Shown in pieces: positions 1-19,877 of a stretch of 32,000 nucleotides of DNA. The translations under genes were made by a program, and so were the position numbers. Under the pieces are notes generated by a model. It searched no databases. It was not told the DNA's origin and was given only the letters and a program-made list of their open reading frames with translations. The first letter of the stretch is position 1. Every line of letters begins with the position of its first letter. The stretch lies in contig OY970350.1 in assembly GCA_963718045.1 (NCBI GenBank), forward strand, positions 120,001 through 152,000, given 5' to 3'. Source of the stretch: Candidatus Saccharimonadota bacterium (lineage in GTDB: Bacteria > Patescibacteriota > Saccharimonadia > Saccharimonadales > UBA4665).

Positions 1-917
<917 letters not shown>

Positions 918-919
918 CT

Positions 920-3472
920 ATGGACAAAGACGTTAACAAAGAAGAACCGGAGATAATCCTTCCTCTAGAGGCGAGCAAGCAAGTCCACTCCCGAATAGTC
1001 GAGAGGCGGACAGCTGAAGACGTCATGGAAGATAACTATCTTCGTTACTCAATGAGCGTTATTGTGGCCCGAGCTCTACCAGACGTTAGAGACGGCCTGA
1101 AGCCAGTACATCGTCGTATTTTATACACCATGAACAGGGATGGACTCCGTTCGTCAGCCAAGACACGTAAAAGCGCAAATGTTGTTGGAGCTGTCATGGG
1201 TGACTTTCATCCGCACGGTGATGCCGCTATTTATGAGGCTATGGTTCGTATGGCTCAGGACTGGAGTATGCGCTACCCATTAGTTAACGGGCAGGGTAAC
1301 TTTGGTTCAATGGATGGGGATCCGCCTGCTGCCATGCGTTATACCGAAGCAAAAATGGCTCGTTTAGCTGAAGAACTGCTGCTGGACATAGATAAAGAGA
1401 CGGTTGACTTTCGGGATAACTACGATGGACGGATGCTAGAGCCTACTGTCCTGCCGGCTAAACTACCTAACTTACTTCTAAATGGCCAGCTTGGAATTGC
1501 TGTCGGTATGGCAACTAATATTCCGCCTCACAACCTGGGTGAATTAGTTGACGCAACCGTTTACCAGATTGAAAACACCGATGCTGTACTTGACGATCTA
1601 CTTAAGTTTGTTAAAGGACCAGATTTCCCAACTGGCGGTGTAGTTTACGGTAAAGAATCACTGCGCGTTGCTTATGCCACTGGTAAGGGCGGGGTTGTTA
1701 CCAGGGGTGTAGCCGAAATTATTGAGGATGCCAAGAATAGGCAGAAGATAATCATTAACGAGATACCTTACGCCTTAAACAAAGAATCGCTGATCATTAA
1801 AATTGCCGATTTAGTCAGGGAAAAGAAGATCTCTGGAATTAGCGATATAAGAGATGAAAGCTCTCGCGGGCAGGTCCGGATAGTAATCGATTTAAAGAAG
1901 GATGCTTTTCCCAGCAAGCTGCTTAACCAGTTATTTAAACTAACACCACTGCAAACGACCTTCCACTTCAATATGCTGGCCTTAATCGACGGCATTCAGC
2001 CCAGAGTCCTAGGCCTTCAAGACATTATTAAAGAGCATATTAAACACCGTCAATCTGTTGTCCGAAGGCGAACAGAATTCGAACTAAGAAAAGCCGAAGA
2101 ACGAGCCCATATCTTAGAGGGACTTAAGATAGCCCTTGATCACATTGACGAAGTGATTGCTACTATCCGGGCCTCTAAAGACTACGATGAAGCCCTGGCC
2201 AACCTTATCAAGAAGTTCAAACTGACCGATATCCAAGGGCGGGCAATTCTCGCCATGCAGCTAAGGCGGCTGACGGGACTAGACCGTAAAGAGATTGAAG
2301 ATGAACTAGCTGAACTTATAAAACTGATCGAGAACTTAAAGGGCATTTTAGCGGACGAGAAGAAGATACTGGCTATAGTTAAAGACGAGCTGATTGAACT
2401 TAAGAAGCAGTATGCCGATGCCAGAAGGACTAAGGTTGTTGCCTCAGAACTAGGCAGATTAAGTGATGAGGACCTTATTGCAGATGAACAAGTAGTGGTT
2501 ACCTTAACGGCCGCCAATTATATAAAGAGGAGCCCCATTGCTGAATACAAGCGGCAAGGCAGAGGCGGTAAGGGACGCAGGGGTATGGTAACCAGAGAAG
2601 AAGACGTTATTGAACATGTCGTTAACGCTTCTACTCATGATTTCTTACTGTTCTTTACCAATAAAGGTCGTGTCTTTAGATTAAAGACATATGAGGTTCC
2701 ATCAGTCTCTCTAGGCGCTAAAGGCGTAGCTTTAGTGAACTTACTGCAGCTGCAGCCCGAAGAGACTGTCAACTCAGTTATAAACATCAGTCAAAGTGAC
2801 CATGCTGCTAACTTGATCATGTGTACTATGAGAGGTGTTATTAAGAAGACACCGTTCGAACAATATAAGAACGTCCGTAATTCCGGTCTAATTGCTATCA
2901 ATCTGGATGCTGGCGATGAACTGAAGTGGATTAGAATGACTACCGGTGATAACGAGGTTATTATCTCTACATCTCAAGGACAAGCTATCAGATTCCACGA
3001 AAGAGATGCCCGCCCAATGGGACGTGTCAGCCGCGGTGTCAGAGGTATTAGACTGAGAACAGATGACCATGTCATCGGTATGGATATTGTAAAAGAGAAC
3101 TCCAGTATCTTTGTAATCAGCCGGTATGGCTATGGTAAGCGAACTAAGGTTGCCCAGTTTACACCTCACGCTAGAGGCGGAGTAGGTATCCGTTCAGCAG
3201 TGGTTAACTCTAAGACTGGCGAACTGGTAGGTGTTAAGACACTGGGTGAGACAGCTGACCAGGAAGTCATCATAATTAGCCAAATGGGCCAGACAATTAG
3301 ATTAGGCATTAAAGACATTCCTAGCCTAGGCAGGGCTACTCAAGGCGTAAGAATTATGCGTCTCAATGACGGTGACGAGGTAGTTTCATTAGCTCTAGTT
3401 GACAAGATTGAGGAAGAAGATAACGAAGGTGATATAGAAGAAAGTGTTGATAAAAACGCTACAAATGAGTGA
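920..3472 (+). CDS. gyrA: DNA gyrase subunit A
   Basis: 850-aa ORF with GyrA signatures: [17 protein letters not shown] (QRDR), catalytic-Tyr context AAMRYTEAK, and a C-terminal repeated beta-pinwheel-like region. Confidence 0.97.
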
Positions 3473-3506
3473 CATTTGGCCGTAGATATTTACTCTCAAA
3501 AATTCT

Positions 3507-3521
3507 GATTATTAACAATTT
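3507..3521 (+). promoter_or_regulatory. boxA-like element inside the relic rRNA leader (GATTATTAACAATTT)
   Basis: Resembles E. coli rrn boxA TGCTCTTTAACAATTT as I recall it. It is a paralog of the elements at 18759-18773 and 23357-23371. Confidence 0.35.
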
Positions 3522-3618
3522 GGCAATGCGCTTCATCATCAGCTCATTTTTTAATTGTTTTAAACAAATTATATTTTTAAGAGTTTAATCTTAACTTAGG
3601 ATGAACACTGGCAGTGTG
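3511..3618 (+). pseudogene. Decayed copy of the rRNA leader plus the first ~45 nt of 16S
   Basis: Hand alignment to 18763-18869 gives about 85 of 108 columns identical with one 1-nt gap. Shared blocks are ATTAACAATTTGG, TCATTTT, AATTGTTTTAAACAAATT, AGAGTTT, AGGATGAAC and CTGGC. The similarity ends abruptly ~45 nt into 16S. Confidence 0.7.
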
Positions 3619-3702
3619 AATTATCTACCCCTATACTTTCACCTGTACTGACAACACCTGTGGATAAGTGGTGAAATTAGATTATTTTTGTGTTCAATTT
3701 TC

Positions 3703-3731
3703 TTGCACTAATATACCCAGAGTTATACAAT
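3703..3731 (+). promoter_or_regulatory. Possible sigma70-type promoter for the giant-gene pair (TTGCAC-17 nt-TACAAT)
   Basis: Hexamers and 17-nt spacing read directly, ~55 nt upstream of the ATG at 3785. AT-rich context, so chance matches are common. Confidence 0.3.
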
Positions 3732-3784
3732 AAAACTACGGATAACAATACCAAGAACTAAAAAGAACAAATAAATAATAAAAA

Positions 3785-6700
3785 ATGAAGCCTGAAGATA
3801 ATAGCTTGGAATCGGGTTCTGAAGCTTCCCAGTACAACTCTTCTTTAGAGGGTGGTTATCAGACGTCGAATGCGCCAAATATACCAATTAAGTCTCCGAA
3901 GGTAAGTATATCGCTGTTTAAATTTAATAAACTGGCAATACTTATAACGGTCAGTACCTTACTTTTCATTGGTTTACTCGGTGGCGGGGCTTTTATTTAC
4001 GATAAAACACATAGTAAAGCATCTTCATTAAACAGCTTAGAAGCAAGTGGTACTTACAAAAATGGCAGCACACTTGCCGTTAACCAAGCGCAACAAGCTG
4101 ATTTATTAACGCTCGGACAAGTTAATCAGCTATCAGTCAACGGACAGCTAACCGTCAACAAAACTCTTGTGTTGACACCATCAACCACACCAACTTCGCC
4201 GATTGCCGGAGAAATTTACTTCGATAGCACCACTAATAAACCGTACGTCTATAATGGTTCACAGTTCGTAAGTCTTCAAATACCCGCACAGTACGTTGCT
4301 AACGTTGGCGGCATCACGGGGAATATCGTGCTTGGCAATGGCCTAACCATTAACGGTAACACCGTAAATGTTTCGAATAGTTTATTGCAATCAATAAGCT
4401 CGGCAGCTTCCAGCACTTCCGTTGTCAGCAGCCTGCAAGGCGCTACTGGTAACGTTACGCTATCCTCTGGATCGGGTATATCTATAAATGGTACTACGGT
4501 TAGTAATACCGGGGTGCTGAATTTGACGTCTTTGAATGGCAGTATAGTTATTACTAATAGCGGCAGTGGAAGTTATAATTTAGCACTTTCTGGAGGTGGC
4601 GGGGTGATTCTTGGCCCTAATGCCGCTCAAATCGATAATTCAAACAACCCGTCTATTTACATAAACAAAACAAACAATGGTAATTTGTTAGAACTTCAGA
4701 ACAATGGAGTAGACCAATTTGTTGTTAATCAGAGCGGTAACCTAGGTATTAACGGCAGCTTTACGCAAAATGGTACTGGCACGTTTAGTACTGGTTCTGG
4801 AGCAGTATCGCTTAACGGTAATACCACCATAACTGGTGGTAACAGCTTAACAGTTTCTAGTGGAGCTACAACACTTAGAGGTACATTGGGAGTAACAGGG
4901 GTCTCAACATTGGGCTCACTCGGTGTTAGTTCATTTAGCGATTCCGGTGCGGCGAGCGTTACTGGCAACACTTCTCTTACTGGAACTTTATCTGTACAGG
5001 GAGCTGTAACCTTAGGGAGTAACTCTCCAGCCACTCAAGGTAGTTTAATATTTGACAACGGCACCAACAATAATGTTATTTCTATTGTGCCATCAGTACC
5101 GACAGGTTCTGGAGACGTCAGTGTTGAGTTTCCAGCGTTAACAGGTGGTTCTTCTGACTATTTCTGTGTTACAGGGCCGGATGCTAACTGTGGTACGTCA
5201 GCTACTACTGTTACAACTTCGTCTAGCGGCACTAGTGGCGATATCGCCGAATTCACTGGTGCAAATCAAATTGCGAATTCCCCCATAACAGACAATGGCA
5301 GTAATGCTCTGACTATACAATCCGGTTATACCCTAAATGTAGGTACGTTGGCTAGTGTTGGTGATCTAAATATTACGCCCAGTGGTAAAGTTAACATTAA
5401 TGATACAGCTCAAGAAGTAGAAATTCAGGGTAATGCTAGCTCATATTTCTCTGTGTCAGCAAATGGCAAGACAAATAAGCTGGCATTTACTTCGCCGACC
5501 TCTGCTCAACCAACAAACTATACGATAACTGTTCCAGATGAGAGTGGTACGATCTGTCTCGATAATGACGCGGCAAACTGTGGTTTTGCCACCAGTGGGA
5601 GTGGTGTAACTGATGTTAACGGCTACACAGGAGTTATATGTATCCAAGATGCAAATGATAATGGCTCCTGCAGCGGCAACAACGTAACTATTAATAATGC
5701 TACTTCTTCAGCTTTGGGTATAGCGTCATTTAGTTCTACAGATTTTAATGTATCAAGCGGAGCAGTTACTACTGTCCAAAATATATCTACAAGCGGTGAT
5801 GTACAATTTGATGGCTTATCACTGGGTAGTGGCTACAACTGTACTGCTCCAGAGACAGGGAGCCTTTGTTTGTCTACTGGCGGCACGGTTTACACTTCGA
5901 ACATAGTAAATCCGAGCAGTACTGCGCCGCTACAAGTTACCAGTGCCAATTCTATTTTCCAGTTTGATCAAGAAGGTACGACTTTCGAATTCCCAACAGG
6001 TTATGGTAACACTACGCATGACATCTGTGTATCTGGTGTAAGCTGTGCAACTGGTACCGGTGCTGCCGTTATTTTACAGCCTAGCTCAGCACAGGCCGAT
6101 GACGGAAGCATAGCCGGTATATTTATAAACGACATTAACTCTAACTGTACTCTTGGAACAAACTGTAAAGATTTGGTTGATTTACAGAACGGCGGTAGCG
6201 ATGTCTTTACAGTTGATCAGTATGGTAACGCTCAGTTCGATCAGACTTTATACGCTAACACAATTCAACCAATAAGCGGTGCAGGTGGAATTACTGTCGG
6301 TACTTCAGGCACAAGTCAAACATTTACGCTCCAAGGTAACTCTGGTTCAGAAATAGAGATAACTAATCCTAATGGCGGAGTATCATATATTGGCATCGAG
6401 AACCCTTCTGGCGGCACTGCTTCTAGTCAGAGTGTGTACTATGCCCTAGACGATACGCAAGCACCCTCTTCAGGTACTAATGGTGGCAACGCTGCTGCAA
6501 ACCCAATATTTATTTGCACGAGTGCTAATAGTTACTGTACGGCAAGCAGTGGCATAACTGGTACAGGTACGACAGGTGACCTACCCCTGTTCAATGGTGC
6601 CCACTCATTAGCTAATTCAATACTGTCTCAATCTTCTTCAAATATAGCAATTGCCGGATCTTCCTCAACCTCCTCGCTGACTATAGGCAATATTTCATCG

Positions 6701-9700
6701 ACAGCCGGTCAACTTGTATTTAACAATGGTATCAATAGTAACTCTATAACCTTTACTCAACCGGCTTCCCAGCCATCAAGCGCAATCAATATTGGTTTAC
6801 CATCTGTAGCTGGGACTGTTGCAGTTAAAGGGACTGGGCCCATATCAGTTGATAATACCGGTACAATAAGTTGTAGTGACTGTGCTGTTACTGGCAGCGG
6901 CGGCTCGGGAGCAAACGTAGTCACAACTTTAAATGGCTTAGATAATGCAGTCAGCATAACTGATTCACTTAATAATGCATTTAGTACCAGTGGCCAAAAC
7001 GTACAAATAGCCAATGCTTCAACCAGCAATTTAGGTCTCGTTAAGATTAACAATGACGGGAATCTAACCGTTTCTAGTGGCGTCGTAGATACCGCACAGA
7101 ATATCCAAACTAGCTCTAGCCCACAATTCGCAAGCGTATATCTGGGCAGTGCTGGTCCTAGCGGGAATGATGGCCAACTAGTCTTCTATGATGGTAGCAC
7201 TGGCTACAAACTAACTCTAAATCAGCTTACTTTAACCAATAATCAGACTATACACATACCAAACAACTCTGGTACTTTAATTGTTGCTGTCGGTTCATCT
7301 AATAACTTAACCCTAAATAATGGTGTAGTAGATACTGCTAACGCAGTAAACTTCCCAACATCAGTAACTACAGCAGAATTACTATCGGGTTCAAGTTCAC
7401 TACAGATTGGTTCGACTTCTTCAGTTCAGCCCTTTACCTTAAATGGTACAGCAGGCACAAGTGGTAGCTACTCATCATTGGATTTATATAGCGGCACTTA
7501 CAACACTAAGATAGATTTTGCAGTACCGGCAACAGGCAATAACGTCTACACATTCCCTGATGCAGGCGGCATTTCAGCAACTGTTTGTTTGCAAAATACA
7601 GGCAGTAGTTATAACAGCTGTACCTATGGATCAGGCTTAAATGGTATTGGTAGTTCAAATCAAGTAGCCTATTTCTCGGGTACCGGCACTCTATCAAGCG
7701 CAACGAATTTCTATGATAACGGCTCCACCGTAGGGCTTGGTGGTGTATCGTCAGGTTTTGGTACCCATACTCAGTTAACAGTTAATACAAATGCCACAGC
7801 AGTCAATAGTGCAGTTACTCAGCTTAACAGCGGCACCAGTAATCCGACTTACATACCTTTAGTTGTTGAAGGTGCTTCCAGTCAAACAGCTGATCTATTA
7901 GATATAGATAGTAATGCTGGAACCCCACTTGCCGGCTTTAATAGTACCGGAAACCTATATTTTAGCGGTTCTTCAAATAACACCATTACCGGTGCTAGCA
8001 ATGAAAACCTTACATTACAGAGTCAGGGCGCTGGTCAGTTACTTCTTAATTCTGCTGGCAGCAGCCTAGCGCTACAAGTAGGCGGTACGACAGAGGCTAC
8101 CGTAAGCAGTGCAGGCAACTTCAACCTACTTAATGGAAGTTATCAATTGGGGGGAAGTACTACATTATCGTCAGCAGCCTTAACCTTCACAGCTAGTACC
8201 GATAGCATTACCGGCCCATCAGGTAGCAGCATTACCTTAGATACTACTGGCTCAGGTATCCTATATCTAGGCAATACTAACGCTCCTAATATATATCTTG
8301 GTAATGGTAACTCAACCACTACAGTAGCCGGGCAGTTGTCTCAGAGCTACTCTAGTCCATCAGCTAGCACAGCAGATACTATTGGCTTTACAAATAGTAA
8401 CAGTGCAGCCGGGGTAGCTATTCAAGGTATTAGTCTAACACCTGCTAACACCACTCCATCCTCAGGTACTAACACTCTGAATGTTCTTAACTTTGTCGCT
8501 GGATCAGGAACGAATGCCACGGCCATCACCAATGGTGTTAACTTTGCTAGCAGTACTGGCTATTCTAACTTTATTAACGCACCAAACTTTGTAGTAGGTA
8601 GTAATGGGGTAATAACACTTGGGACTGTAGGTACAACAGAAGGAGAGCTTACCCTGAATAGTAGCCATTCTGGTGGGTCATTTAGTATTGAGCCAAGTGT
8701 TAATCAGGCTAAATCTACTATCTTATATTTACCAACAGACAGTTCCAGTACCGATACAGTTTGTCTAGTTTCTGATTGTACCGGTGCTGGTGCCGGCTCC
8801 GGTGATAGTAGCTATATATATAACACTTATTCCAGCCAACAATCACCTGGCAACATAGATATCGAGAGTGCTGTAGGGTATGTAGCCGCTAGTATTCAGG
8901 GGGCTTCTGGCCAAGACATAATGGATCTATATTCTAATGGTGGTACTCTTGTAGCCCACTTTGACAGTAGTGGAAATCTTAGCGCGGGCACTATCAATGG
9001 AGCAACTATTACTAGTACTGCCTTTGACGGTGCTACTCTAAGTGGCGGTTCTCTAAGTGGCAGCAGTCTATCAGCAACTCAGTTACTATTCAGTGGCGTT
9101 ACCGGTACAGTTACTACTAACTCTGGAGATAATTTAACAATTGATACTGGTGGTGGTACTTCCACACTTAACCTTGGCAATGCTTATGCTACAACCATAC
9201 AAATTGGTAACACCACCTTAAGCTCAGGTACCCAGACAATCAATATTGGCAATAACAACACATCAGGTGGTACTACCAATGTTAATATAGGCAATGGTTC
9301 AACGGCTCTTGGTACGGTAGCTATTCAGGGTGGGAACATAACACTTACAACCGTAGGGTCTGGTACTACCACTATAAGCAATATTTATAATAATACCGGT
9401 ACAGGAACTGCGCTTAAAGATAATGCTTCAGATATCCAAAGCGGCAGTTCTGGCAGCAGTACTGTTAATGCTGACACTATAAGTTTAACCGGCAATGCTA
9501 CTTCCGGTGAGACTATTAATCTAAACGGTATAAACTTTGCTAATGTTTCAGCAATTGCTAACAACACTTTCAACGGTCTTTACTTTGGTACTGGCTATAA
9601 TAATGCCATTCAAGGTGTCGGATCCCTTAACATAACCGGAGCAGGAGCCAGTACTTGGGATATAGGAGCTAACACTTTATCTCTCCAAACACTTTCTGGC

Positions 9701-12700
9701 GGCGCAATCACTACCGGTACGGGGTTATTTACCCTCGGAGGTAACGTTGCCTTATCTGCAGCCGCACCTTCAATATATAGCTCTACTACTAACTCTGGAT
9801 TAACGTTACAAGCAAACGGTACGGGAGCATTAACACTTAATTCATCTGGAACAACTGGCACAATTGGTGCTATCCAGATTGGTAACGCAAGTACTGCATC
9901 TGTAACCCAGAGCATAAATATAGGGAACAACGCAGGTGCATCATCTGTCTCGACCGTTACTGTTGGCTCAGTTCTAGGTGCCAGTGCTCTTACCCTACAA
10001 GCCGGAACAGGCAACCTAGCCCTAACTACCGGTAGTACCGGTGGTAGTAATATCACCCTAACAACTGATTATGCCTCTTCTAAAATAATTGCTAAATCTA
10101 CTATTAACTCTATTACTGCCTTCCAGATACAAGGGAGCAGTAGCACTGTCTTAACGGCTGACACAACGAATAGCCGGCTAGGAGTGGATAACTCTTACAC
10201 CCAGATAAGTACGCCTGCTTCAGCGCCGACAGTCAACGGTCCATATGCTGGAGGGAGCTTAACATATCCGAATACTTATTACTACGAAATTACAGCTGTT
10301 GATTCAATGGGCGGTGAAACTACTCCTAGCTCGCAAGGAGCTAGCGGTACTCAAACCAGCAGTGCTAACAGAACATATACCATCACATGGAGTGCAGTAA
10401 GTGGAGCTAGTGCTTATAAAATCTACCGCTGTTATGGGACAAGCGGTTGTACTGAAGTTTACATTGCTTCAACCTCAACAACCAGTTATACAGATAACGG
10501 TGTTACAGCTGGCACAGCTATACCGCCAACTACAAATACTGCCTATGTATCGACTAATAGCTCCAACAACAACGGCCAAGTAACCATTGGCGGCAATGGT
10601 ACTCCGACCGGACAGCTATATGTATCAGGTACCGTGCCATCAACGCTCACGGGGGCAACTGGTTATAATATTAGTAACCCAATCTCTACATATGTCTCTG
10701 GCCACTATGCCTACACAATCAGCAATGGCAATAGCGAATTAGTAATTGATGATATTTCCAACCCAGCCAGTCCAACTTATATTAGTGAAATAGGTACTAA
10801 CATTAGCGGCGGACGCTATGTCTATGTTTCTGGTCACTATGCTTATGTTGTCTGCGGTGGCACTACCGGTGAACTAATAATATTTGATATTTCCAATCCA
10901 TTCAGCCCGGCATATGTCAGTGAAACAACCACTAACCTGAATACTCCAAATGATATCTATGTCCAAGGTAATTATGCCTATGTAACAAGCGGCACTAACG
11001 GCACTAATAGCGATTTAGTAATCTTCAATATTTCCAATGCATTCAATCCAGCTTATGTTAGTGAAATAAGCACTAACCTGAATACGCCAAAAACTGTTTA
11101 CATTCAGGGTAATTATGCCTATATCACTAGTTATGGTAGTGGTTACCTAGTAATCGATAACATCTCCAACCCCGCCAACCCAACCTATGTTGGCGAAACA
11201 AACTCTAATTTAGACGGACCTTGGGGTTTATTTGTCTCTGGCAGTTATGCTTACATTGGTGAGGCCACACTTGGTTACCTAGTAATCGATAACATCTCCA
11301 ACCCCGCCAATCCAACCTATATTACCAAAACTAGTACTAATATAAATTACCCGGTATCCGTCTATGTCCAGGGCCGCTATGCCTACATTGCCAATAACGA
11401 AGGTAACTCTATGTCAATCGATGATATCAGCAACCCCTACAATCCAATCAGTGTAGGATTAACTGTCTCTAATTTAAGCTATCCAAGCGGTGTTTTCATC
11501 TCCGGACGCTATGCCTACGTAGATAGCAGCAATAATAACTCATTAGTAATTTATGATTTAGGCGGCACATATGATCAACAGCTGCAAGCTGGCGGGGCAG
11601 AATTAGGTACTTTGCAGGTAGATGGTAACTCGATTATGAGTGGCGATGCTTCTGTACAGGGTGGTCTGGCAGTCGGCAGTAATGCCCAAATACAGGGCGG
11701 CCTTAGCGTGGCCGGTTCTTCAACTCTTGGCAGTTTAAGTTTGAGCGGACTGGCCACACCGGCTGCTCCGACCGAAACAGTAACTTGTAGCGGTACTTGT
11801 GCTACCTCGTACAATTATGCCGTAGCGGCTATCAATGTCAGTGGTGTAACGGCTGCCTCTGCCAGTACTTCAACCGGAGCTACAGCTAATGCCTCACTAA
11901 ATACCACAACTGAATACAATAGAACTGGCTGGACTGCTGTAACCGGTGCTACTGGCTACAATATATATAGGACAGCCGGCGGGGCCGCTCAGGGCCTGAT
12001 AGGTACAGTCCCAGCTTCCAGCATTACCGCTCCGACTCCCACCTCAGGTAGTGAAACCGGTGCTACCTTGACCCTAAACTACTCCATACCACCACCATTC
12101 GTAATCGGCCAAGCCATTACTCTGGCTGGCTTTACTATGAATACCGGATCAGTTAACGGTACCTGGCCAATCCTATCGGTAACCTCTTCGGCTATTACTA
12201 TCAATATACTGAGTGGTGTTACTTCTACTATCAGTACCATGGGTACGGCTACCGGCATACTAGGTTTCTATGACACTGCCCAGACTGCCGGAACCTCAGC
12301 CCCGACCACGACTACTGCCGGAAGCTTAACAGTTAATGGCCCTGGCTTATTTGAGAATGCTTCTAACTCCACTACAGCCTTCCAGGTACAGAATGCCAGT
12401 GGCTATACATTATTGGGGGTAGATACAACAAGTGCAGACAATGACGTAATAATAGGCCAATCTAGTAATCTTACCGGTAACCTTATATTTGCCAACGCTA
12501 GTAATTCCTACACATTTAGTTTGACTGCCTCAACTGCGGCGAGCGGAAATATCTCTCTAATCTTGCCGTCTGTTGCACCGTCAGCTGGCCAATGTTTGAC
12601 AGCAACAAGCAGTACGCAATTAGCTTTTGCAGGCTGTGGTACATCTCACGCTAAACAGATAACGCTAGCAGCCGAATATGCTGGGGCTGTATTGGATAGC

Positions 12701-13159
12701 GCCGGTGATTCAAGTTGTTCTAGTGCTAATGTCGGGACAATGACTAGTGGCTATAATGATACAGATTCTACACCTCAATCATATTACCAGTGGTCAACTG
12801 TTCAAAGCTCGGCACGATGTTACGATGTTGTTGTTCAAATACCTATACCTAGCGACTGGTCTTCTTGGACTGGTACACCAACCATTTATGCATCTGCGGG
12901 TACGGGTGGCAGTATTGCCATAGCTGCCATAGCATCAAACGGTACCGAGGAATCAAACTACGGTACCATGTCGGCTGGTGTTGCAGCTTACCATAGCGAG
13001 ACAACAACTGGCTCTCTGGCGACTGTAACCCTACAAGGACTAACCAGCGCTAGCGATTCTGCAAATGGCGTACTCACTCTAAAAATTAGGATGTCCGCAA
13101 CCAGTAGCGGTAATACAGAAATAGGTACAATTATCATTCCGTATACATCGGCCTATTAA
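3785..13159 (+). CDS. Giant (3,124 aa) N-terminally anchored surface protein: long G/S/T/N-rich repetitive stalk, FN3-like modules, LVIVD-repeat beta-propeller, C-terminal domain of unknown function
   Basis: Single uninterrupted 9,375-nt ORF. It has one hydrophobic segment at aa ~49-72 (nt ~3929-4000). More than 2,000 aa are low-complexity strand-like repeats (e.g. GNTSLTGTLSVQGAVTLGS). FN3-like stretches occur at nt ~10230-10500 (..YYYEITAVD..AYKIYR) and ~11790-12000 (..YNYAVAAIN..GYNIYR). No SD is seen before the ATG. Confidence 0.9.
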   Translation: MKPEDNSLESGSEASQYNSSLEGGYQTSNAPNIPIKSPKVSISLFKFNKLAILITVSTLLFIGLLGGGAFIYDKTHSKASSLNSLEASGTYKNGSTLAVNQAQQADLLTLGQVNQLSVNGQLTVNKTLVLTPSTTPTSPIAGEIYFDSTTNKPYVYNGSQFVSLQIPAQYVANVGGITGNIVLGNGLTINGNTVNVSNSLLQSISSAASSTSVVSSLQGATGNVTLSSGSGISINGTTVSNTGVLNLTSLNGSIVITNSGSGSYNLALSGGGGVILGPNAAQIDNSNNPSIYINKTNNGNLLELQNNGVDQFVVNQSGNLGINGSFTQNGTGTFSTGSGAVSLNGNTTITGGNSLTVSSGATTLRGTLGVTGVSTLGSLGVSSFSDSGAASVTGNTSLTGTLSVQGAVTLGSNSPATQGSLIFDNGTNNNVISIVPSVPTGSGDVSVEFPALTGGSSDYFCVTGPDANCGTSATTVTTSSSGTSGDIAEFTGANQIANSPITDNGSNALTIQSGYTLNVGTLASVGDLNITPSGKVNINDTAQEVEIQGNASSYFSVSANGKTNKLAFTSPTSAQPTNYTITVPDESGTICLDNDAANCGFATSGSGVTDVNGYTGVICIQDANDNGSCSGNNVTINNATSSALGIASFSSTDFNVSSGAVTTVQNISTSGDVQFDGLSLGSGYNCTAPETGSLCLSTGGTVYTSNIVNPSSTAPLQVTSANSIFQFDQEGTTFEFPTGYGNTTHDICVSGVSCATGTGAAVILQPSSAQADDGSIAGIFINDINSNCTLGTNCKDLVDLQNGGSDVFTVDQYGNAQFDQTLYANTIQPISGAGGITVGTSGTSQTFTLQGNSGSEIEITNPNGGVSYIGIENPSGGTASSQSVYYALDDTQAPSSGTNGGNAAANPIFICTSANSYCTASSGITGTGTTGDLPLFNGAHSLANSILSQSSSNIAIAGSSSTSSLTIGNISSTAGQLVFNNGINSNSITFTQPASQPSSAINIGLPSVAGTVAVKGTGPISVDNTGTISCSDCAVTGSGGSGANVVTTLNGLDNAVSITDSLNNAFSTSGQNVQIANASTSNLGLVKINNDGNLTVSSGVVDTAQNIQTSSSPQFASVYLGSAGPSGNDGQLVFYDGSTGYKLTLNQLTLTNNQTIHIPNNSGTLIVAVGSSNNLTLNNGVVDTANAVNFPTSVTTAELLSGSSSLQIGSTSSVQPFTLNGTAGTSGSYSSLDLYSGTYNTKIDFAVPATGNNVYTFPDAGGISATVCLQNTGSSYNSCTYGSGLNGIGSSNQVAYFSGTGTLSSATNFYDNGSTVGLGGVSSGFGTHTQLTVNTNATAVNSAVTQLNSGTSNPTYIPLVVEGASSQTADLLDIDSNAGTPLAGFNSTGNLYFSGSSNNTITGASNENLTLQSQGAGQLLLNSAGSSLALQVGGTTEATVSSAGNFNLLNGSYQLGGSTTLSSAALTFTASTDSITGPSGSSITLDTTGSGILYLGNTNAPNIYLGNGNSTTTVAGQLSQSYSSPSASTADTIGFTNSNSAAGVAIQGISLTPANTTPSSGTNTLNVLNFVAGSGTNATAITNGVNFASSTGYSNFINAPNFVVGSNGVITLGTVGTTEGELTLNSSHSGGSFSIEPSVNQAKSTILYLPTDSSSTDTVCLVSDCTGAGAGSGDSSYIYNTYSSQQSPGNIDIESAVGYVAASIQGASGQDIMDLYSNGGTLVAHFDSSGNLSAGTINGATITSTAFDGATLSGGSLSGSSLSATQLLFSGVTGTVTTNSGDNLTIDTGGGTSTLNLGNAYATTIQIGNTTLSSGTQTINIGNNNTSGGTTNVNIGNGSTALGTVAIQGGNITLTTVGSGTTTISNIYNNTGTGTALKDNASDIQSGSSGSSTVNADTISLTGNATSGETINLNGINFANVSAIANNTFNGLYFGTGYNNAIQGVGSLNITGAGASTWDIGANTLSLQTLSGGAITTGTGLFTLGGNVALSAAAPSIYSSTTNSGLTLQANGTGALTLNSSGTTGTIGAIQIGNASTASVTQSINIGNNAGASSVSTVTVGSVLGASALTLQAGTGNLALTTGSTGGSNITLTTDYASSKIIAKSTINSITAFQIQGSSSTVLTADTTNSRLGVDNSYTQISTPASAPTVNGPYAGGSLTYPNTYYYEITAVDSMGGETTPSSQGASGTQTSSANRTYTITWSAVSGASAYKIYRCYGTSGCTEVYIASTSTTSYTDNGVTAGTAIPPTTNTAYVSTNSSNNNGQVTIGGNGTPTGQLYVSGTVPSTLTGATGYNISNPISTYVSGHYAYTISNGNSELVIDDISNPASPTYISEIGTNISGGRYVYVSGHYAYVVCGGTTGELIIFDISNPFSPAYVSETTTNLNTPNDIYVQGNYAYVTSGTNGTNSDLVIFNISNAFNPAYVSEISTNLNTPKTVYIQGNYAYITSYGSGYLVIDNISNPANPTYVGETNSNLDGPWGLFVSGSYAYIGEATLGYLVIDNISNPANPTYITKTSTNINYPVSVYVQGRYAYIANNEGNSMSIDDISNPYNPISVGLTVSNLSYPSGVFISGRYAYVDSSNNNSLVIYDLGGTYDQQLQAGGAELGTLQVDGNSIMSGDASVQGGLAVGSNAQIQGGLSVAGSSTLGSLSLSGLATPAAPTETVTCSGTCATSYNYAVAAINVSGVTAASASTSTGATANASLNTTTEYNRTGWTAVTGATGYNIYRTAGGAAQGLIGTVPASSITAPTPTSGSETGATLTLNYSIPPPFVIGQAITLAGFTMNTGSVNGTWPILSVTSSAITINILSGVTSTISTMGTATGILGFYDTAQTAGTSAPTTTTAGSLTVNGPGLFENASNSTTAFQVQNASGYTLLGVDTTSADNDVIIGQSSNLTGNLIFANASNSYTFSLTASTAASGNISLILPSVAPSAGQCLTATSSTQLAFAGCGTSHAKQITLAAEYAGAVLDSAGDSSCSSANVGTMTSGYNDTDSTPQSYYQWSTVQSSARCYDVVVQIPIPSDWSSWTGTPTIYASAGTGGSIAIAAIASNGTEESNYGTMSAGVAAYHSETTTGSLATVTLQGLTSASDSANGVLTLKIRMSATSSGNTEIGTIIIPYTSAY
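10660..11565 (+). repeat. Seven LVIVD-type repeats (predicted 7-bladed beta-propeller) inside the giant CDS
   Basis: The motif YAY(V/I)..(n)..L(V/I)I(D/F)(D/N)ISNP..P.Y(V/I)(S/G)E recurs seven times by my count. Two units share a near-identical ~47-nt DNA block (about 11146-11192 and 11274-11320). Confidence 0.75.
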
Positions 13160-13235
13160 AAGGAGCTAACTATCAAAGTGCAGAACCTTTTTTAGGATCA
13201 TAACTTAGGCCTAGAAGTAAAAATTAAACAAAAAT

Positions 13236-16200
13236 ATGTCTAAAAAGTCGGCAACATTAAATCAAAAGGATAAAGCAAATGGAGATGTAACTACTAGCGA
13301 AATAGCAGCTAGATTAGTTCCATCTCGTAAATATGCCCAACTGACAACCAAAACGAAGTTTATTAATAAATTCGTTCAGACTAAGAGAAAAGTAACCAAA
13401 ATTGGTAATTCTAAATATCTATTAGCCACAAGAAGGGAACTTAGAAAAACAATTAAACAAATAACCTGTAGTCCGGTGACTATAAAATTTGTATGTATAT
13501 ATAAAGGACTAACTAAAACAGTTATCTATCGGACTGATTTTATTACAAAACCAATTAAGAAAAAGCTCCAGCCACCAATTAGTCTATTTATCCGTCGGTT
13601 TAACAAAGTAGTTGACCGGCTTGGCCGAAAACGCGTTAAGTGGGTAAGCTACGGATTATTTAGCACCCTAGTGGTTGTAGCTATAGCAGTTGGTTCCATA
13701 GCCTATATCCATAACTTGATTAATTCCAGCTATAATCTGCCGGTTAACGAACAAGCTTTGATCGGATCCCCTGACACTGCCTTAATGAAATCCCAATTAA
13801 CCTATAACTCTAAAACTAAAACATACTACCTAGACAAATCGGGCATAGACAAGAGTTCCAGTTCTACTCCCGGAGTCCCATCTGGAGATAACAGTATTAG
13901 CATCGGATCTAAATCTAATTCAGCCTTTAGTCTAGTAATACCTACTAACATCCATCAAGGCTTTACAGCTTATGACAATACCTACGGACTATCCTTCACC
14001 CTAACTCCTGAGTTTGACGCTATGAACGCCAAGATGGTAGACGGTCATCTAGTCTATCCAATGGGACTAAATTCAACTAAAGACGTCTACACCATTAAGG
14101 CTAATGGTCTCCAAGAAAACATAGTCTATAACTCTGCGCCAGCGGGAACAGTCAAACTAGCCTATAAACTGGAATTGCCCAGTACCCTCCAAGCTAAAAT
14201 GATGCCAGGCGGTAACATAGGTATTTATTCAGCCAGTCCATATTTATTCGGTAACATCAGCTACGGCTCAGCTAAAGACCAAGCCCTGGTAGCTAAAGCC
14301 AGACTTAACGCCGCTAAAACTAACCTGGTCTTTGTCTTACCAGCTCCGGAAATAACCGACAACGACGGAATGGCTCCAACTAACGTTCAACAACAAACTA
14401 AATTCAGTCTTAAAGGGGACATCTTAACCTTAACTGCCAGCGATTTAGGCGGTATCCATGGCCCGATCTCCATCGACCCGAGTGTTATTGATGCCAGTGC
14501 CAGTTCTTTTGGCCAGGGTAATAACGAAAGTGATATATCATTTGCCAATTCCAGCATATCTGAAGCCGGACTTAGCGGCGGCGGTCTAGCTGGCAACACC
14601 AATAGCTGTGGGGCATCTTGGTGTGCCTCGAACGGTACTGCCGGCACGGGCGCCAACCTGCCGGCTGCTACCTACGAAGCCACCGCTGTCGCCTACAATG
14701 GCTACGTCTATCAGATAGGGGGGTATGCTGGCAGTCCCACCGCCGTAGTGGACTACGCGGCACTCACCAGCAGTGGTGCGCTGGCCGCACCGGGTTCGGC
14801 TGCCTGTACCGCTGGCGGCGGTTCTATTGCCGGTGACTGGTGTGCCTCGAACGGTACTGCCGGCACGGGCGCCAACCTGCCGGCTGTCACCTCCCAACCC
14901 ACCGCTGTCGCCTACAACGGCTACGTCTATCAGATAGGGGGGTGTTCTACTGCTTGCCCCACCGCCGTAGTGGACTATGCGGCTATCACCAGCAGCGGGG
15001 CGCTGGCCGCACCGGCTTCGGCTGCCTGTACCGCTGGCGGCGGTTCTATTGCCGGTGACTGGTGTGCCTCGAACGGTACTGCCGGCACGGGCGCCAACCT
15101 GCCGGCTGCCACCGACTACGCCACCGCTGTCGCCTACAATGGCTACGTCTACCAGATAGGGGGGTATACTACCGCTGCCACCGCCGTAGTGGACTACGCG
15201 GCTATCACCAGCAGTGGTGCGCTGGCCGCACCGGGTTCGGCTGCCTGTACCGCTGGCGGCGGTTCTATTGCCGGTGACTGGTGTGCCTCGAACGGTACTG
15301 CCGGCACGGGCGCCAACCTGCCGGCTGCTACCTACGAAGCCACCGCTGTCGCCTACAATGGCTACGTCTATCAGATAGGGGGGTGTTCTACTGCTTGCCC
15401 CACCGCCGTAGTGGACTACGCGGCTATCACCAGCAGTGGTGCTCTGGCCGCTCCCGGCAGTTGTGCTGGTACTATCACCGGCTATTGGTGTGCCTCAACT
15501 TCTACGGCTAACGGCAGCCTGCCGGCTGCTACCTACGTCGCTACCGCTGTCGCCTACAATGGCTACGTCTATCAGATAGGGGGGATGGCTGGCGGTGCCA
15601 CCGCCGCAGTGTACTACGCCCCGATATACAATGGTGGCAATATTGGCCCCTGGTCATCCACCACTAGCCTACCGGCTGCTACCTACTACGCTACCGCTGT
15701 CGCCTACAATGGCTACGTCTATCAGATAGGGGGGTATACTACCGCTGCCACCGCCGTAGTGGACTACGCGGCTATCAGCAGTCCAGGAGATGTTGCTCCT
15801 TGGACAGCCTCAACTTCTACGGCTAACGGCAGCCTGCCGGCTGCTACCTACGAAGCCACCGCTGTCGCCTACAATGGCTACGTCTATCAGATAGGGGGGT
15901 ATACTACCGCTGCCACCGCCGTAGTGGACTACGCGGCTATCACCAGCAGTGGTGCGCTGGCCGCTCCCGGCAGTTGTGCTGGTACTATCACCGGCTATTG
16001 GTGTGCCTCAACTTCTACGTCTAACGGCAGCCTGCCGGCTGCTACCTACGGCGCCGCCGCTGTTGCCTACAACGGCTATGTCTACCAGATAGGGGGGTAT
16101 GCTGGCAGTGTCACCGCTGTAGTGGACTACGCGGCTATCACTAGCAGTGGGGCGCTGGCCGCTCCCGGCAGTTGTGCTGGTACTATCACCGGCTATTGGT

Positions 16201-18518
16201 GTGCCTCAACTTCTACGTCTAACGGCAGCCTGCCGGCTGCTACCTACGGCGCCGCCGCTGTTGCCTACAACGGCTATGTCTATCAGATAGGGGGGTATAC
16301 TACCGCTGCCACCGCCGTAGTGGACTACGCGGCTATCACCAGCAGTGGTGCGCTGGCCGCTCCCGGCAGTTGTGCTGGTACTATCACCGGCTATTGGTGT
16401 GCCTCAACTTCTACGTCTAACGGCAGCCTGCCGGCTGCTACCTACTACGCTACCGCTGTCGCCTACAATGGCTATGTCTACCAGATAGGGGGGTATGCTG
16501 GCAGTGTCACCGCTGTAGTGGACTACGCGGCTATCACTAGCAGCGGGGCGCTGGCCGCACCGGCTTCGGCTGCCTGTACCGCTGGCGGCGGTTCTATTGC
16601 CGGTGACTGGTGTGCCTCGAACGGTACTGCCGGCACGGGCGCCAGCCTGCCGGCTGCTACCTACTACGCCACCGCTGTCGCCTACAATGGCTACGTCTAT
16701 CAGATAGGGGGGTATGCTGGCGGTGCCACCGCTGTAGTGGACTACGCGGCTATCACCAGCAGTGGGGCGCTGGCTGCTCCCGGCAGTTGTGCTGGTACTA
16801 TCACCGGCTATTGGTGTGCCTCAACTTCTACGGCTAACGGCAGCCTGCCGGCTGCTACCTACGTCGCTACCGCTGTTGCCTACAACGGCTATGTCTATCA
16901 GATAGGGGGGTATGCTGGCAGTCCCACCGCCGTAGTGGACTACGCGGCTATCAACAACGGCGGGCCGGCGACGTTGAGTGCTTGGGCTGCCACCGGCAGT
17001 CTGCCGGCTGCTACCTACCAAGCCACCGCTGTCGCCTACAACGGCTATGTCTATCAGATAGGGGGGTATGCTGGCAGTGTCACCGCTGTAGTGGACTACG
17101 CGGCTATCACTAGCACTGGGGCGCTGGCCGCTCCCGGCAGTTGTGCTGGTACTATCACCGGCTATTGGTGTGCCTCAACTTCTACGTCTAACGGCAGCCT
17201 GCCGGCTGCTACCTACTACGCTACCGCTGTCGCCTACAATGGCTATGTCTATCAGATAGGGGGGTGTTCTACTGCTTGCCCCACCGCCGTAGTGGACTAT
17301 GCGGCTATCACCAGCAGCGGGGCGCTGGCCGCACCGGCTTCGGCTGCCTGTACCGCTGGCGGCGGTTCTATTGCCGGTGACTGGTGTGCCTCGAACGGTA
17401 CTGCCGGCACGGGCGCCAACCTGCCGGCTGTTACCTACGGCGCTACCGCTGTCGCCTACAATGGCTATGTCTATCAGATAGGGGGGTATGCTGGCATTGT
17501 CACCGCCGTAGTGGACTACGCGGCTATCACCAGCAGCGGGGCGCTGGCTGCTCCCGGCAGTTGTGCTGGTACTATCACCGGCTATTGGTGTGCCTCAACT
17601 TCTACGTCTAACGGCAGCCTACCGGCCGCTACCTACCTCGCTACCGCTGTCGCCTACAACGGCTACGTCTATCAGATAGGGGGGTGTTCTACTGCTTGCC
17701 CCACCGCCGTAGTGGACTATGCGGCTATCAATTCCAGCACCGGTGCTGTCGGTACCTGGACTGCCACTGGCAGCCTGCCGGCTGCTACCTACTACGCTAC
17801 CGCTGTCGCCTACAATGGCTATGTCTATCAGATAGGGGGGTGTTCTACTGCTTGCCCCACCGCCGCAGTGTACTACGCCCCGATATACAATGGTGGCAAT
17901 ATTGGCCCCTGGTCATCCACCACTAGCCTGCCGGCTGCTACCTACCAAGCCACCGCTGTCGCCTACAACGGCTATGTCTATCAGATAGGGGGGTATACTA
18001 CCGCTGCCACCGCCGTAGTGGACTACGCCGGATTGCAATCCATGCCCCGAATTGGCTTTTACTCACAGTTAATCGACATGTCCGGCTCATCAACCGAAGA
18101 TCCAGCCGCCGATTATATACTTGCCAATGGCTCCCAAACAGGGGATCCTGGCATAGGCGGTCTTAGCGGCCCAGGTACTGGGGGTATATCTATAAATTAC
18201 CAATTTGCCTCTAATGCTTGCCCGACCTTTAATAGCTCAACTGCGCTAACTACTAGCGCGCTAGTACTCGGTACTCCTTACCCCATGACTTCTTCTTCCA
18301 ATGGCTGCAGCAGTTCTTCAGATACTAATTTTGGCCGTTGGGTTTGGGTTACTGTCAAACTCGATGATTCCCAAACTGCGACATTCCCGGACTCTAGCGG
18401 TAACCATGCTACAATAACGGGATTCACGTTGTATTATCACCCGGCGACTAATGGAAGACTGCGTGGCGGAGCCACTTTTAGCAATGGTTCTTTACAAACG
18501 CTTGATGCACCACCTTGA
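13236..18518 (+). CDS. Giant (1,760 aa) membrane-anchored surface protein with 18 Kelch-like tandem repeats
   Basis: Uninterrupted ORF 76 nt downstream of the previous giant gene. It has a Lys/Arg-rich ~135-aa N-terminus, one TM segment (VSYGLFSTLVVVAIAVGSIAYI), a ~300-aa unique ectodomain, the repeat array, and a ~250-aa unique C-terminal domain. Confidence 0.9.
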   Translation: MSKKSATLNQKDKANGDVTTSEIAARLVPSRKYAQLTTKTKFINKFVQTKRKVTKIGNSKYLLATRRELRKTIKQITCSPVTIKFVCIYKGLTKTVIYRTDFITKPIKKKLQPPISLFIRRFNKVVDRLGRKRVKWVSYGLFSTLVVVAIAVGSIAYIHNLINSSYNLPVNEQALIGSPDTALMKSQLTYNSKTKTYYLDKSGIDKSSSSTPGVPSGDNSISIGSKSNSAFSLVIPTNIHQGFTAYDNTYGLSFTLTPEFDAMNAKMVDGHLVYPMGLNSTKDVYTIKANGLQENIVYNSAPAGTVKLAYKLELPSTLQAKMMPGGNIGIYSASPYLFGNISYGSAKDQALVAKARLNAAKTNLVFVLPAPEITDNDGMAPTNVQQQTKFSLKGDILTLTASDLGGIHGPISIDPSVIDASASSFGQGNNESDISFANSSISEAGLSGGGLAGNTNSCGASWCASNGTAGTGANLPAATYEATAVAYNGYVYQIGGYAGSPTAVVDYAALTSSGALAAPGSAACTAGGGSIAGDWCASNGTAGTGANLPAVTSQPTAVAYNGYVYQIGGCSTACPTAVVDYAAITSSGALAAPASAACTAGGGSIAGDWCASNGTAGTGANLPAATDYATAVAYNGYVYQIGGYTTAATAVVDYAAITSSGALAAPGSAACTAGGGSIAGDWCASNGTAGTGANLPAATYEATAVAYNGYVYQIGGCSTACPTAVVDYAAITSSGALAAPGSCAGTITGYWCASTSTANGSLPAATYVATAVAYNGYVYQIGGMAGGATAAVYYAPIYNGGNIGPWSSTTSLPAATYYATAVAYNGYVYQIGGYTTAATAVVDYAAISSPGDVAPWTASTSTANGSLPAATYEATAVAYNGYVYQIGGYTTAATAVVDYAAITSSGALAAPGSCAGTITGYWCASTSTSNGSLPAATYGAAAVAYNGYVYQIGGYAGSVTAVVDYAAITSSGALAAPGSCAGTITGYWCASTSTSNGSLPAATYGAAAVAYNGYVYQIGGYTTAATAVVDYAAITSSGALAAPGSCAGTITGYWCASTSTSNGSLPAATYYATAVAYNGYVYQIGGYAGSVTAVVDYAAITSSGALAAPASAACTAGGGSIAGDWCASNGTAGTGASLPAATYYATAVAYNGYVYQIGGYAGGATAVVDYAAITSSGALAAPGSCAGTITGYWCASTSTANGSLPAATYVATAVAYNGYVYQIGGYAGSPTAVVDYAAINNGGPATLSAWAATGSLPAATYQATAVAYNGYVYQIGGYAGSVTAVVDYAAITSTGALAAPGSCAGTITGYWCASTSTSNGSLPAATYYATAVAYNGYVYQIGGCSTACPTAVVDYAAITSSGALAAPASAACTAGGGSIAGDWCASNGTAGTGANLPAVTYGATAVAYNGYVYQIGGYAGIVTAVVDYAAITSSGALAAPGSCAGTITGYWCASTSTSNGSLPAATYLATAVAYNGYVYQIGGCSTACPTAVVDYAAINSSTGAVGTWTATGSLPAATYYATAVAYNGYVYQIGGCSTACPTAAVYYAPIYNGGNIGPWSSTTSLPAATYQATAVAYNGYVYQIGGYTTAATAVVDYAGLQSMPRIGFYSQLIDMSGSSTEDPAADYILANGSQTGDPGIGGLSGPGTGGISINYQFASNACPTFNSSTALTTSALVLGTPYPMTSSSNGCSSSSDTNFGRWVWVTVKLDDSQTATFPDSSGNHATITGFTLYYHPATNGRLRGGATFSNGSLQTLDAPP
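14601..18029 (+). repeat. In-frame tandem array of 18 Kelch-like units (about 150-222 nt each), markedly GC-rich
   Basis: The core AVAYNGYVYQIGG occurs 18 times in the translation. DNA periods of 219-222 nt show in the regularly spaced alternative-frame ORFs (14840, 15062, 15281). Long stretches are near-identical between units. Confidence 0.95.
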
Positions 18519-18596
18519 TAATAATTATCGGCATCATATAAACAAAAACTTAATTTCTACCTACCAAACTGTAGCAAGTTCAACATCAGATTTAGC

Positions 18597-18625
18597 TTGA
18601 CCATATCTGTTAAAATTGCTAAAAT
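18597..18625 (+). promoter_or_regulatory. 16S promoter (TTGACC-17 nt-TAAAAT)
   Basis: Near-consensus hexamers with 17-nt spacing, ~200 nt upstream of mature 16S, and duplicated exactly upstream of 23S. Confidence 0.7.
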
Positions 18626-18758
18626 GTTTATTGATTGTTTGAGTTTAGGTAGAGCCTTAAGCCAGGCTTTAAGTTTCAGTCGTAAACTCAAGCACCTAGA
18701 GAGACTTACTTAGGCGGTGAAGATTCACCCTAAGTTTTGGACCGAACGCTAGAGTTTC

Positions 18759-18773
18759 GATCATTAACAATTT
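18759..18773 (+). promoter_or_regulatory. boxA-like antitermination element in the 16S leader (GATCATTAACAATTT)
   Basis: 12 of 13 match to the E. coli rrn boxA core TCTTTAACAATTT as I recall it. Conserved in the 23S leader copy. Confidence 0.55.
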
Positions 18774-18790: not shown

Positions 18791-18827
18791 TCAGTTCATT
18801 TTGAATTGTTTTAAACAAATTCTTTTT

Positions 18828-18874
<47 letters not shown>

Positions 18875-19689: not shown

Positions 19690-19725
<36 letters not shown>

Positions 19726-19830: not shown

Positions 19831-19877
<47 letters not shown>

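Follow-up and report, generated by a model that had tools for sequence, protein, structure and literature searches.

A probable remnant of the original 16S ribosomal RNA unit downstream of gyrA in a Saccharimonadota genome

The DNA studied here is a stretch of 32,000 nucleotides (nt), called the window throughout, from a Candidatus Saccharimonadota bacterium (GenBank assembly GCA_963718045.1, contig OY970350.1, positions 120,001 to 152,000). In it gyrA is followed by two giant surface-protein genes, and the 16S and 23S ribosomal RNA (rRNA) genes lie beyond them. The short sequence at 3497-3651, between gyrA and the first giant gene, very probably consists of both ends of the original 16S transcription unit, which remained where they were and lost their function after the 16S gene had been relocated; we refer to it as the stump. 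A preliminary description of this DNA had recognised part of this sequence as a decayed rRNA leader followed by the 5' end of 16S, and had offered two histories for it, the Campbell-type integration of a circular element or the decay of a second rrn copy that once followed gyrA. The latter idea was right, as the stump stands in the place of the 16S gene and carries the native flank that precedes its boxA in the closest relative with the older layout.

Three genomes are compared throughout: W, the window genome; S, a sister genome represented by loci L083 and L163; and O, which among the relatives with the older layout is the closest, represented by loci L001 and L166. A GyrA query was used to fetch 80 genome and 80 metagenome loci, giving 158 Saccharibacteria gyrA loci related to the window. 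All features described below are on the plus strand unless otherwise stated.

The stump downstream of gyrA

When positions 3511-3618 were globally aligned with 18763-18869, 86 of 108 columns were identical with one 1-nt gap, practically the 85 of 108 that had been counted by hand. The best local alignment (3503-3618 with 18756-18869) had 92 identities in 116 columns (79%). Its score of 108 was far above those of 500 dinucleotide-preserving shuffles (20.5 ± 2.5, maximum 32; z = 35), and an independent repeat search recovered the same pair as families D9 and D11. The 40-nt flanks of the two copies were identical at 9/40 and 7/40 positions, which is the chance level, and therefore the repeat boundaries within the window are abrupt, as had been stated. 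The right-hand copy comprises boxA, the remaining leader and nt 1-46 of 16S; the Rfam small-subunit (SSU) match beginning at 18824 agrees with its earlier reading as a boxA-like leader end plus about the first 45 nt of 16S. Between the copies, the two giant open reading frames (ORFs) and a sigma-70-like promoter (TTGACC-17-TAAAAT at 18597-18625) were found, and so the content attributed to this interval, two giant genes and the working rRNA promoter, was also right.

The upstream anchor of the ancestral gyrA-16S junction is gyrA itself (920-3472), an ORF of 850 amino acids. The spacer after it (3473-3496) ends in TTTACTCT (3489-3496), the one copy that survives of a short direct repeat. Then follows the native 16S-type leader just 5' of boxA, CAAAAATTCT (3497-3506), matching AAAAAATTCT in the 16S leader of O. 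The working 16S copy of W has the 23S-type CTAGAGTTTC before its boxA, unlike the stump, whose pre-boxA flank is thus that of O and is absent from the working copy. The relic boxA, GATTATTAACAATTTGGCA (3507-3525), differs by 2 mismatches from the working 19-mer GATCATTAACAATTTGGTA, which has 3 matches in the window (at 3507 with those 2 mismatches, at 18759 and at 23357) where 0.02 would be expected by chance. The relic of the remaining 16S leader (3526-3572) aligns to 18778-18823, and positions 3512-3539, including part of the boxA relic, are the counterpart of the 5' strand of the 16S processing stem. Next comes the relic of 16S nt 1-46 (3573-3618), which aligns to 18824-18869 and ends at a deletion joint. 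On the other side of this joint, which is also found in S, lies a relic of about the last 11 codons and the stop codon of orf272 (3619-3651), that is, the right end of the old 16S block: window positions 3621-3704 are 72% identical to 22969-23050, and both align to O 17868-17965.

The sequence that follows (3652-3784) is the upstream region of the first giant gene, giant1, and it is highly conserved in W, S and O. It contains a putative promoter, TTGCAC-17-TACAAT (3703-3731), and a 5' untranslated region (UTR). This promoter was read by eye and its function is presumed; a consensus scan omitted it, since only 3 of the 6 positions of its −35 box agree. The 5' UTR of giant1 (3734-3784) has GGATAACAATACC (in S GGATAAAAATATC, in O GGGTAACAATATC), loosely like the boxA core of the clade, TTAA[C/A]AAT, a resemblance that is probably due to chance.

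Comparison with O located two deletions in the old 16S copy. W is collinear with O (L001) up to position 12577 of the latter and then lacks 63 nt, which in O hold the promoter TTGACA-18-TACAAT (L001 12579-12608); a −35 TTGAC is conserved at the matching site across the relatives. In O these 63 nt are flanked by TTTTCTCTG and TTTTCTCTC, and W keeps a single copy of the repeat at 3489-3496. The promoter deletion therefore lies between TTTTCTCT repeats, and S carries the same one. The second deletion, of 4-5 kb, runs from nt 46 of 16S to the final codons of orf272 and took place at a CGGCGT microhomology common to 16S (CTGGCGGCGTG) and to the 3' end of orf272 (TTGCCGGCGTAG); the hexamer at the joint is now CAGTGT (3612-3617), its ancestral state being CGGCGT. 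Both joints bear short repeats and are common to W and S. The old 16S copy is thus truncated to nt 1-46 of the gene, without its promoter and its 4-5 kb interior.

The decay of the stump can be followed because its ancestral sequence is known, the working leaders of W, S and O being identical. Over 129 stump columns there were 21 substitutions common to W and S, 5 (+2) found only in W and 3 (+2) found only in S. GC-to-AT changes affected 18 of 47 GC sites, and AT-to-GC changes 7 of 82 AT sites. The stump of W differed from that of S at 10/129 positions, compared with 51/504 at the 4-fold degenerate sites of gyrA and gyrB (Fisher p = 0.50). One leader block, nearly unchanged in 14 working leaders, differs in the stump by 9 substitutions and an insertion of 1 nt. 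The relic boxA, with 2/19 positions changed in W and 2/17 in S, is the best-preserved part. An Rfam scan of 3400-3800 (E ≤ 10) returned only noise, because the 46-nt remnant of 16S is too short and too decayed to be matched. A scan of 3300-3900 for promoters and terminators gave two weak promoter matches, no more than in shuffled sequences, and no terminator. No convincing promoter was present upstream of the relic boxA, which only read-through from gyrA could transcribe. Judging from these sequence comparisons, the stump appears to be non-functional, and it drifts at the neutral, synonymous-site rate with an AT bias.

Gene order in relatives and the giant genes

In all the loci that extend far enough downstream, gyrA is followed by 16S, and only in the window and in L083 does a giant gene take its place; this statement covers loci with enough downstream assembly, as many related contigs end inside 16S. 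The gyrA-16S junction is therefore ancestral, and the claim of an ancestral gyrA-rrn junction holds across the 158 related loci wherever they are assembled far enough. Four layouts were distinguished. In layout I (e.g. L024, L039, L149) the order is gyrA-16S-tRNAs-23S-5S-orf161m-ROK-S1, where tRNAs stands for transfer RNA genes. In layout II, gyrA-16S-tRNAs is followed by orf272 and a giant gene (L001, L002, L005, L059, L080, L146); in the variants L012 and L008 additional sequence separates the parts, and L008 gave no match to orf272. Layout III is that of the window and L083. Layout IV has gyrA, an inverted giant-gene fragment, an inverted orf272 and 16S. Layout IV, in which the inverted parts are an orf272-like gene and an N-terminal fragment resembling giant1, was seen in L157/L158, L023, L042, L067, L088, L089, L121, L122, L128 and L143. 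The orf272-giant module thus recurs beside rRNA genes at varied positions and orientations.

The GyrA protein of O is 95% identical to that of W, and BLAST of the window against L001 gave five collinear blocks. Window positions 1-3496 correspond to L001 9082-12577 (86%), 3489-3618 to 12641-12770 (81%), 18759-19570 to 12660-13471 (97.8%, and 100% in the leader), 19585-23053 to 14496-17965 (88%) and 3621-8284 to 17879-22547 (87%). From these blocks it follows that the order in O is gyrA, leader, 16S, tRNAs, orf272 and giant1. Its junction between orf272 and the giant1 promoter is homologous to that of the window. On the same contig of O, 8.8 kb further on (L166), there are the C-terminus of a giant1-like ORF, a single copy of the 23S promoter and leader module, here called P, and then boxA, 23S and 5S; this 23S side was reached via the orf161m cluster. 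A search for an orthologue of the second giant gene, giant2, in O gave as its best match a sequence only 61% identical, which came from genome S.

The two giant genes occupy 3785-18518 of the window. By Pfam, giant1 (3785-13159) contains LVIVD repeats and giant2 (13236-18518) Kelch repeats. The orthologue of giant1 in O lies 3' of 16S, the tRNAs and orf272 with 87% nucleotide identity. As O has gyrA, 16S, tRNAs, orf272 and giant1, the giant genes were already at the locus and it was the block from 16S to orf272 that moved. The giant genes were not inserted, and their block is not secondary, contrary to what had been proposed: the orf272-giant module is at the locus in O and in the five other layout II relatives listed above. 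The Pfam scan of the two giant ORFs detected only the LVIVD and Kelch repeats, and no integrase or other mobility gene was found in the block. Base composition was also considered as a sign of foreign origin and was rejected, since the G+C content of giant1 (0.44) equals that of gyrA (0.45) and the higher value of giant2 (0.55), a repeat-rich Kelch gene, says nothing clear.

Some other features of the giant genes were recorded. The 4-fold divergence of giant1 (window 3785-8284 against L083 and L001) conflicts with that of gyrA, being 0.26 against 0.405 between W and O and 0.18 against 0.109 between W and S. The conflict is suggestive of recombination or exchange inside this gene. S has a longer giant1 (3888 amino acids) and a third giant gene (2060 amino acids) that is absent from the window. 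Positions 14519-18028 of giant2 hold long, diverged tandem arrays of Kelch type with a period of 198-222 nt and 60-97% identity between units, and the gene calls of giant2 are fragmented in several long-read assemblies.

The working 16S unit and the 23S side

The working 16S gene is now driven by a 23S-type promoter and leader, P1 (18561-18758), which contains the promoter TTGACC-17-TAAAAT already mentioned and is 94-98% identical to P2, the region upstream of 23S (23152-23356). O has a single P copy, placed before 23S (L166rc 327-559), and P homologues were also found upstream of 23S in L024 and L006. That P1 is a copy of the sequence before 23S, and that boxA has a third copy at 23357-23375, had escaped the preliminary description. 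In a four-way alignment, the sequence to the left of the boxA of the working 16S leader (18759-18777) is 23S-type, and to its right it is 16S-type and 100% identical to O. Because the leader switches from one type to the other at boxA, the crossover took place within the 19 nt that both leaders share. The leader of the working 16S gene combines 23S-type and 16S-type sequence in a chimera fused at boxA, and the true recombination joint is there and not at the stump.

From boxA on, the working 16S unit (18778-21682) comprises the leader, the exons and the 3' strand of the processing stem, and was delimited by the Rfam SSU match, collinearity and inverted repeat I1. The exons are 18824-20161, 20562-20655 and 21466 to about 21600, their limits having been set by collinearity with the uninterrupted 16S genes of relatives, and the 3' stem strand is 21655-21682. 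Positions 18764-18791 pair with 21655-21682 over 28 nt (89% complementary), forming the 16S processing stem, and on the 23S side 23399-23426 pair with 28480-28507. As a promoter, a boxA and a processing stem belong to each of them, 16S and 23S form separate units. The other part of the relocated block (21728-22999) consists of tRNA-Ile and tRNA-Ala on the minus strand, identified with ARAGORN, and of orf272 (22181-22999) on the plus strand, taken from the ORF list; it is collinear with O 14496-17965. Between the 3' end of 16S at about 21600 and the start of 23S at 23467 there are thus the opposite-strand tRNAs, orf272 and promoter P2.

At the right end of the relocated block, 23000-23053 is a decaying second copy of the sequence 5' of the giant1 promoter. 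Window positions 22901-23053 are 77% identical to O 17811-17965, and 23000-23053 has diverged from the conserved copy at 3652-3707. The similarity ends at 23053, inside the −35 region of giant1. It is followed by about 70 nt of unexplained origin (23054-23125), conserved in S (L163 ~20344-20414). No significant match to this segment was found in the window, the loci of relatives, the region upstream of P in O, the regions upstream of P1 in W and S or the 3' ends of the giant genes, either with BLAST-short or with local alignments evaluated against shuffles. Within 23054-23151, only some 20-28 nt beside the core of P were weakly similar, and only in S (p ~0.013). P2 then serves as the 23S promoter and leader (23152-23375), was recognised by repeat families D7, D8 and D14, and ends in boxA (23357-23375).

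The rRNA genes also contain several insertions. The 16S gene of the window is interrupted twice near its 3' end. The insertion at 20162-20561 holds an Rfam group-II-D1D4-1 match (20400-20477), and that at 20656-21465 carries a LAGLIDADG_2 ORF (20733-21368). The Rfam SSU match (18824-20213, 1390 nt, for a model of 1533 positions) consequently misplaces the 3' end of 16S, whose true position is about 21600. A third insertion, about 1 kb long, is present in O near 16S position 750. The 23S gene (23467-28433) has three group I introns (25415-25699, 26549-26802 and 27423-27715) and a LAGLIDADG_1 ORF (25922-26479), and its intron content varies among W, S and O. The tRNA-Ile(GAT) and tRNA-Ala(TGC) genes (21728-21894) are the classical rRNA spacer tRNAs, here on the strand opposite to the rRNA. 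In L039, L117, L149 and L161 this pair is on the rRNA strand, and therefore it is inverted in part of the clade.

The sister genome S allowed the rearrangement to be placed in time. Its locus L083 is 91% identical to window positions 1-10789 and carries the stump too, both joints included. The tail of L083 and the head of L163 have 100% identity over 2204 nt, and L163 continues with giant1, giant2, the third giant gene, P1, 16S, orf272, P2, 23S and 5S. Between W and S, the P orthologues are 96.5-96.8% identical, the P paralogues are about 93.4% identical, and an 8-nt deletion is specific to P1. As orthologues are closer than paralogues and P1 has its own deletion, the duplication of P and the rearrangement predate the split of W and S, and the two P copies appear not to have been homogenised since that split. 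The one-sided Jukes-Cantor distance between the stump and its ancestor is about 0.24-0.26, which gives an upper bound of its age because a GC-richer sequence decayed with an AT bias. This distance is near half the W-O 4-fold distance (about 0.29-0.30), which indicates that function was lost soon after the lineage of W and S left O. The suggestion that the stump, diverged by some 20%, is a datable scar was therefore useful: a one-sided divergence of about 21% places the loss soon after O had branched off and earlier than the separation from S.

Proposed history, alternatives and significance

The ancestral layout, kept in O, would have been gyrA, the 16S promoter, boxA, 16S, tRNA-Ile/Ala, orf272, the giant gene or genes, P, boxA, 23S and 5S. 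The block from 16S to orf272 was then very probably copied, in an ancestor common to W and S, to a place that lies between the giant genes and 23S. The copy has its left joint within the 19-nt boxA common to the 16S and 23S leaders, and P is now present twice. The simplest route would be an unequal crossover between two boxA elements, or the excision of a circle and its re-integration between them. Either would have passed through a tandem duplication of the unit formed by the 16S block, the giant genes and P, and the redundant parts, namely the giant genes of the second set and the inner part of the first 16S block, would then have been lost. The old copy was disabled by the two short-repeat deletions, that of the 63 nt with the promoter and that of the 4-5 kb interior. 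From then on the stump has drifted neutrally with its AT bias, marking the former site of 16S.

Several points weigh against this history. The tandem intermediate is a reconstruction, and 23054-23151 yielded no trace of another copy of the giant genes. The 70 or so nt at the right joint match nothing that was searched. Efficient homologous recombination by RecA in Escherichia coli usually requires a length that the 17-19-nt boxA only equals or falls below, and consequently an exchange at boxA would be rare or would follow another route, for example template switching. The giant block of O was read only from its two sides, in the loci L001 and L166, which are 8.8 kb apart. Finally, the relic boxA has 1-2 changes in 17-19 nt when about 3.6 would be expected, a difference that is not significant and concerns two genomes only.

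The first three of these points are also what would speak for a different route to the same outcome, in which the block was inserted by template switching or by non-homologous duplicative insertion and P was doubled separately, without a tandem duplication of the whole unit. The unmatched filler, the missing remnant of a second giant copy and the short homology at the left joint would all suit it, and the two deletions show that events at microhomologies did occur in this lineage. However, it needs extra steps to explain that P was doubled exactly up to boxA and that the block ends in the giant1 promoter region, both of which are accounted for by a tandem duplication followed by one deletion. 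We regard this route as unlikely, although it is the most credible of the alternatives. The Campbell-type integration, in which a circular element with the giant genes and an rRNA leader with the 16S 5' end recombined into the 16S leader behind gyrA, would also leave direct repeats of about 110 nt around the giant genes and the promoter, and the gyrA-16S junction is indeed ancestral. Nevertheless, the orf272-giant module is 3' of 16S and the tRNAs in O, L002, L005, L059, L080 and L146, with no empty site among them, the left repeat adjoins the remnant of the orf272 3' end instead of element sequence, and no integrase or mobility gene is present in a block whose giant1 has the G+C content of gyrA. 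In addition, the left repeat has the native flank and the right one a flank derived from 23S, which indicates a boxA-to-boxA crossover between the 16S and 23S leaders. This integration, as it had been proposed, is very improbable.

A functional role of the stump was weighed too. Its boxA could load Nus factors on read-through transcripts of gyrA for the 15-kb giant operon, or the stump could serve as the 3' UTR or terminator of gyrA. The good preservation of the boxA core favours such a role, read-through is possible as the scan for intrinsic terminators gave none between gyrA and giant1, and antitermination by boxA and Nus factors is generally known to act on long transcripts. On the other hand, the stump diverges between W and S at the synonymous rate, its substitutions are AT-biased, positions that are near-invariant in working leaders have been lost, and its own promoter is deleted. 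Moreover, the conserved giant1 promoter is downstream, so that the main giant transcript would omit the relic boxA, and the few changes in boxA fit a Poisson expectation. Retention for a function is accordingly improbable. The broader idea that boxA may be a portable recombination site, which reshuffles 16S, 23S and the giant module in Saccharimonadales and of which the relic was kept for Nus antitermination over the giant operon, deserves barely more credit. At least four layouts of gyrA, 16S, orf272-giant and 23S exist among the relatives, and if the idea were true, the giant genes would sit in the rRNA locus to use its antitermination machinery.

An assembly artefact, with 16S-related reads mis-joined after gyrA, is hardly conceivable. 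It is true that rRNA regions are common points of breakage and mis-joining, that many related contigs end in 16S and that one hybrid contig was seen. However, the 312-nt spacer between gyrA and giant1 is identical in 7 independent assemblies (3 long-read from ENA and 4 from Logan), the same breakpoints occur in a genome of another project that is about 9% diverged in nucleotide sequence, and a stump 21% diverged from any real 16S leader cannot consist of misplaced reads. The exact orf272 protein of the window was present on 7 contigs in the same order (six of them read), and on one 789-kb long-read contig gyrA and orf272 are 21.3 kb apart, as in the window. The preferred reading remains that of a 16S unit relocated by duplication and of a stump left behind.

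Another long-read contig, contig_22778 (ENA ERZ25039481; L165/L168), was considered as a third genome with the window layout and was not used as evidence, as it is window-like upstream of P2 and O-like downstream. Over the 328 nt checked upstream of P2 it has 100% identity to the window, it encodes the exact orf272 protein of the window, and from P2 on it is O-like, including the two AAA_14/DUF4143 genes of O. It is either a natural recombinant switched at the rRNA promoter or an assembly chimera.

Chromosome rearrangements mediated by rrn operons are classical in Salmonella, and the unlinked rRNA genes of Rickettsia are a related case. As in these, sequence of the rRNA locus served here as the substrate of duplication, relocation and loss. 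Unlike them, this case involves a single 16S and a single 23S, the substrate would be a boxA of 17-19 nt and not a whole rrn operon, and the old stump is still visible. Within the collection of papers searched, nothing usable was found on boxA-mediated rRNA rearrangement or on a recombination model for Rickettsia. The near-intact 19-mer of the stump is homologous to the two working boxA elements and in this resembles the boxA sites of NusB-NusE. In contrast to working sites, it is a relic without its own promoter, 5' of the giant promoter and evolving neutrally. Direct repeats flanking about 15 kb are also found at Campbell scars, from which the present case differs in that an empty site, mobility genes and an element-type junction are lacking and that a second remnant adjoins the left repeat. 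As a molecular fossil of a rearrangement at the rRNA locus, the stump is ordinary and of a known kind, and what is known of rRNA biology is unchanged by it.

Unlinked rRNA genes occur widely in bacteria and are common in Patescibacteria (Brewer et al., bioRxiv 10.1101/705046). A term search of that survey gave no occurrence of either 'recombination' or 'relic', and the origins of the layouts are apparently not addressed. Like the unlinked genes described there, 16S and 23S of this clade have each their own promoter, boxA and processing stem. The gap between them is about 1.9 kb in the window, where the criterion for unlinked genes is reportedly a distance above 1.5 kb or separate transcription, and in O it contains the giant genes. 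Unlike the survey, the present case is a transition with its breakpoints and a fossil, and it goes towards re-joining 16S and 23S.

Transitions between linked and unlinked rRNA genes are rarely documented, and this step can be read base by base: the donor site, the 19-nt boxA joint, the two microhomology deletions and a fossil that dates the event between two speciations are all visible. For practical purposes, synteny beside the rRNA genes is fluid in these organisms, so that linkage of gyrA and 16S cannot be assumed in binning or scaffolding, and annotation of the giant-gene block as a mobile insert should be avoided. As regards the biology of the clade, the 16S gene would have returned beside 23S after the giant genes had separated them, and the promoter and leader module of 23S can drive 16S.

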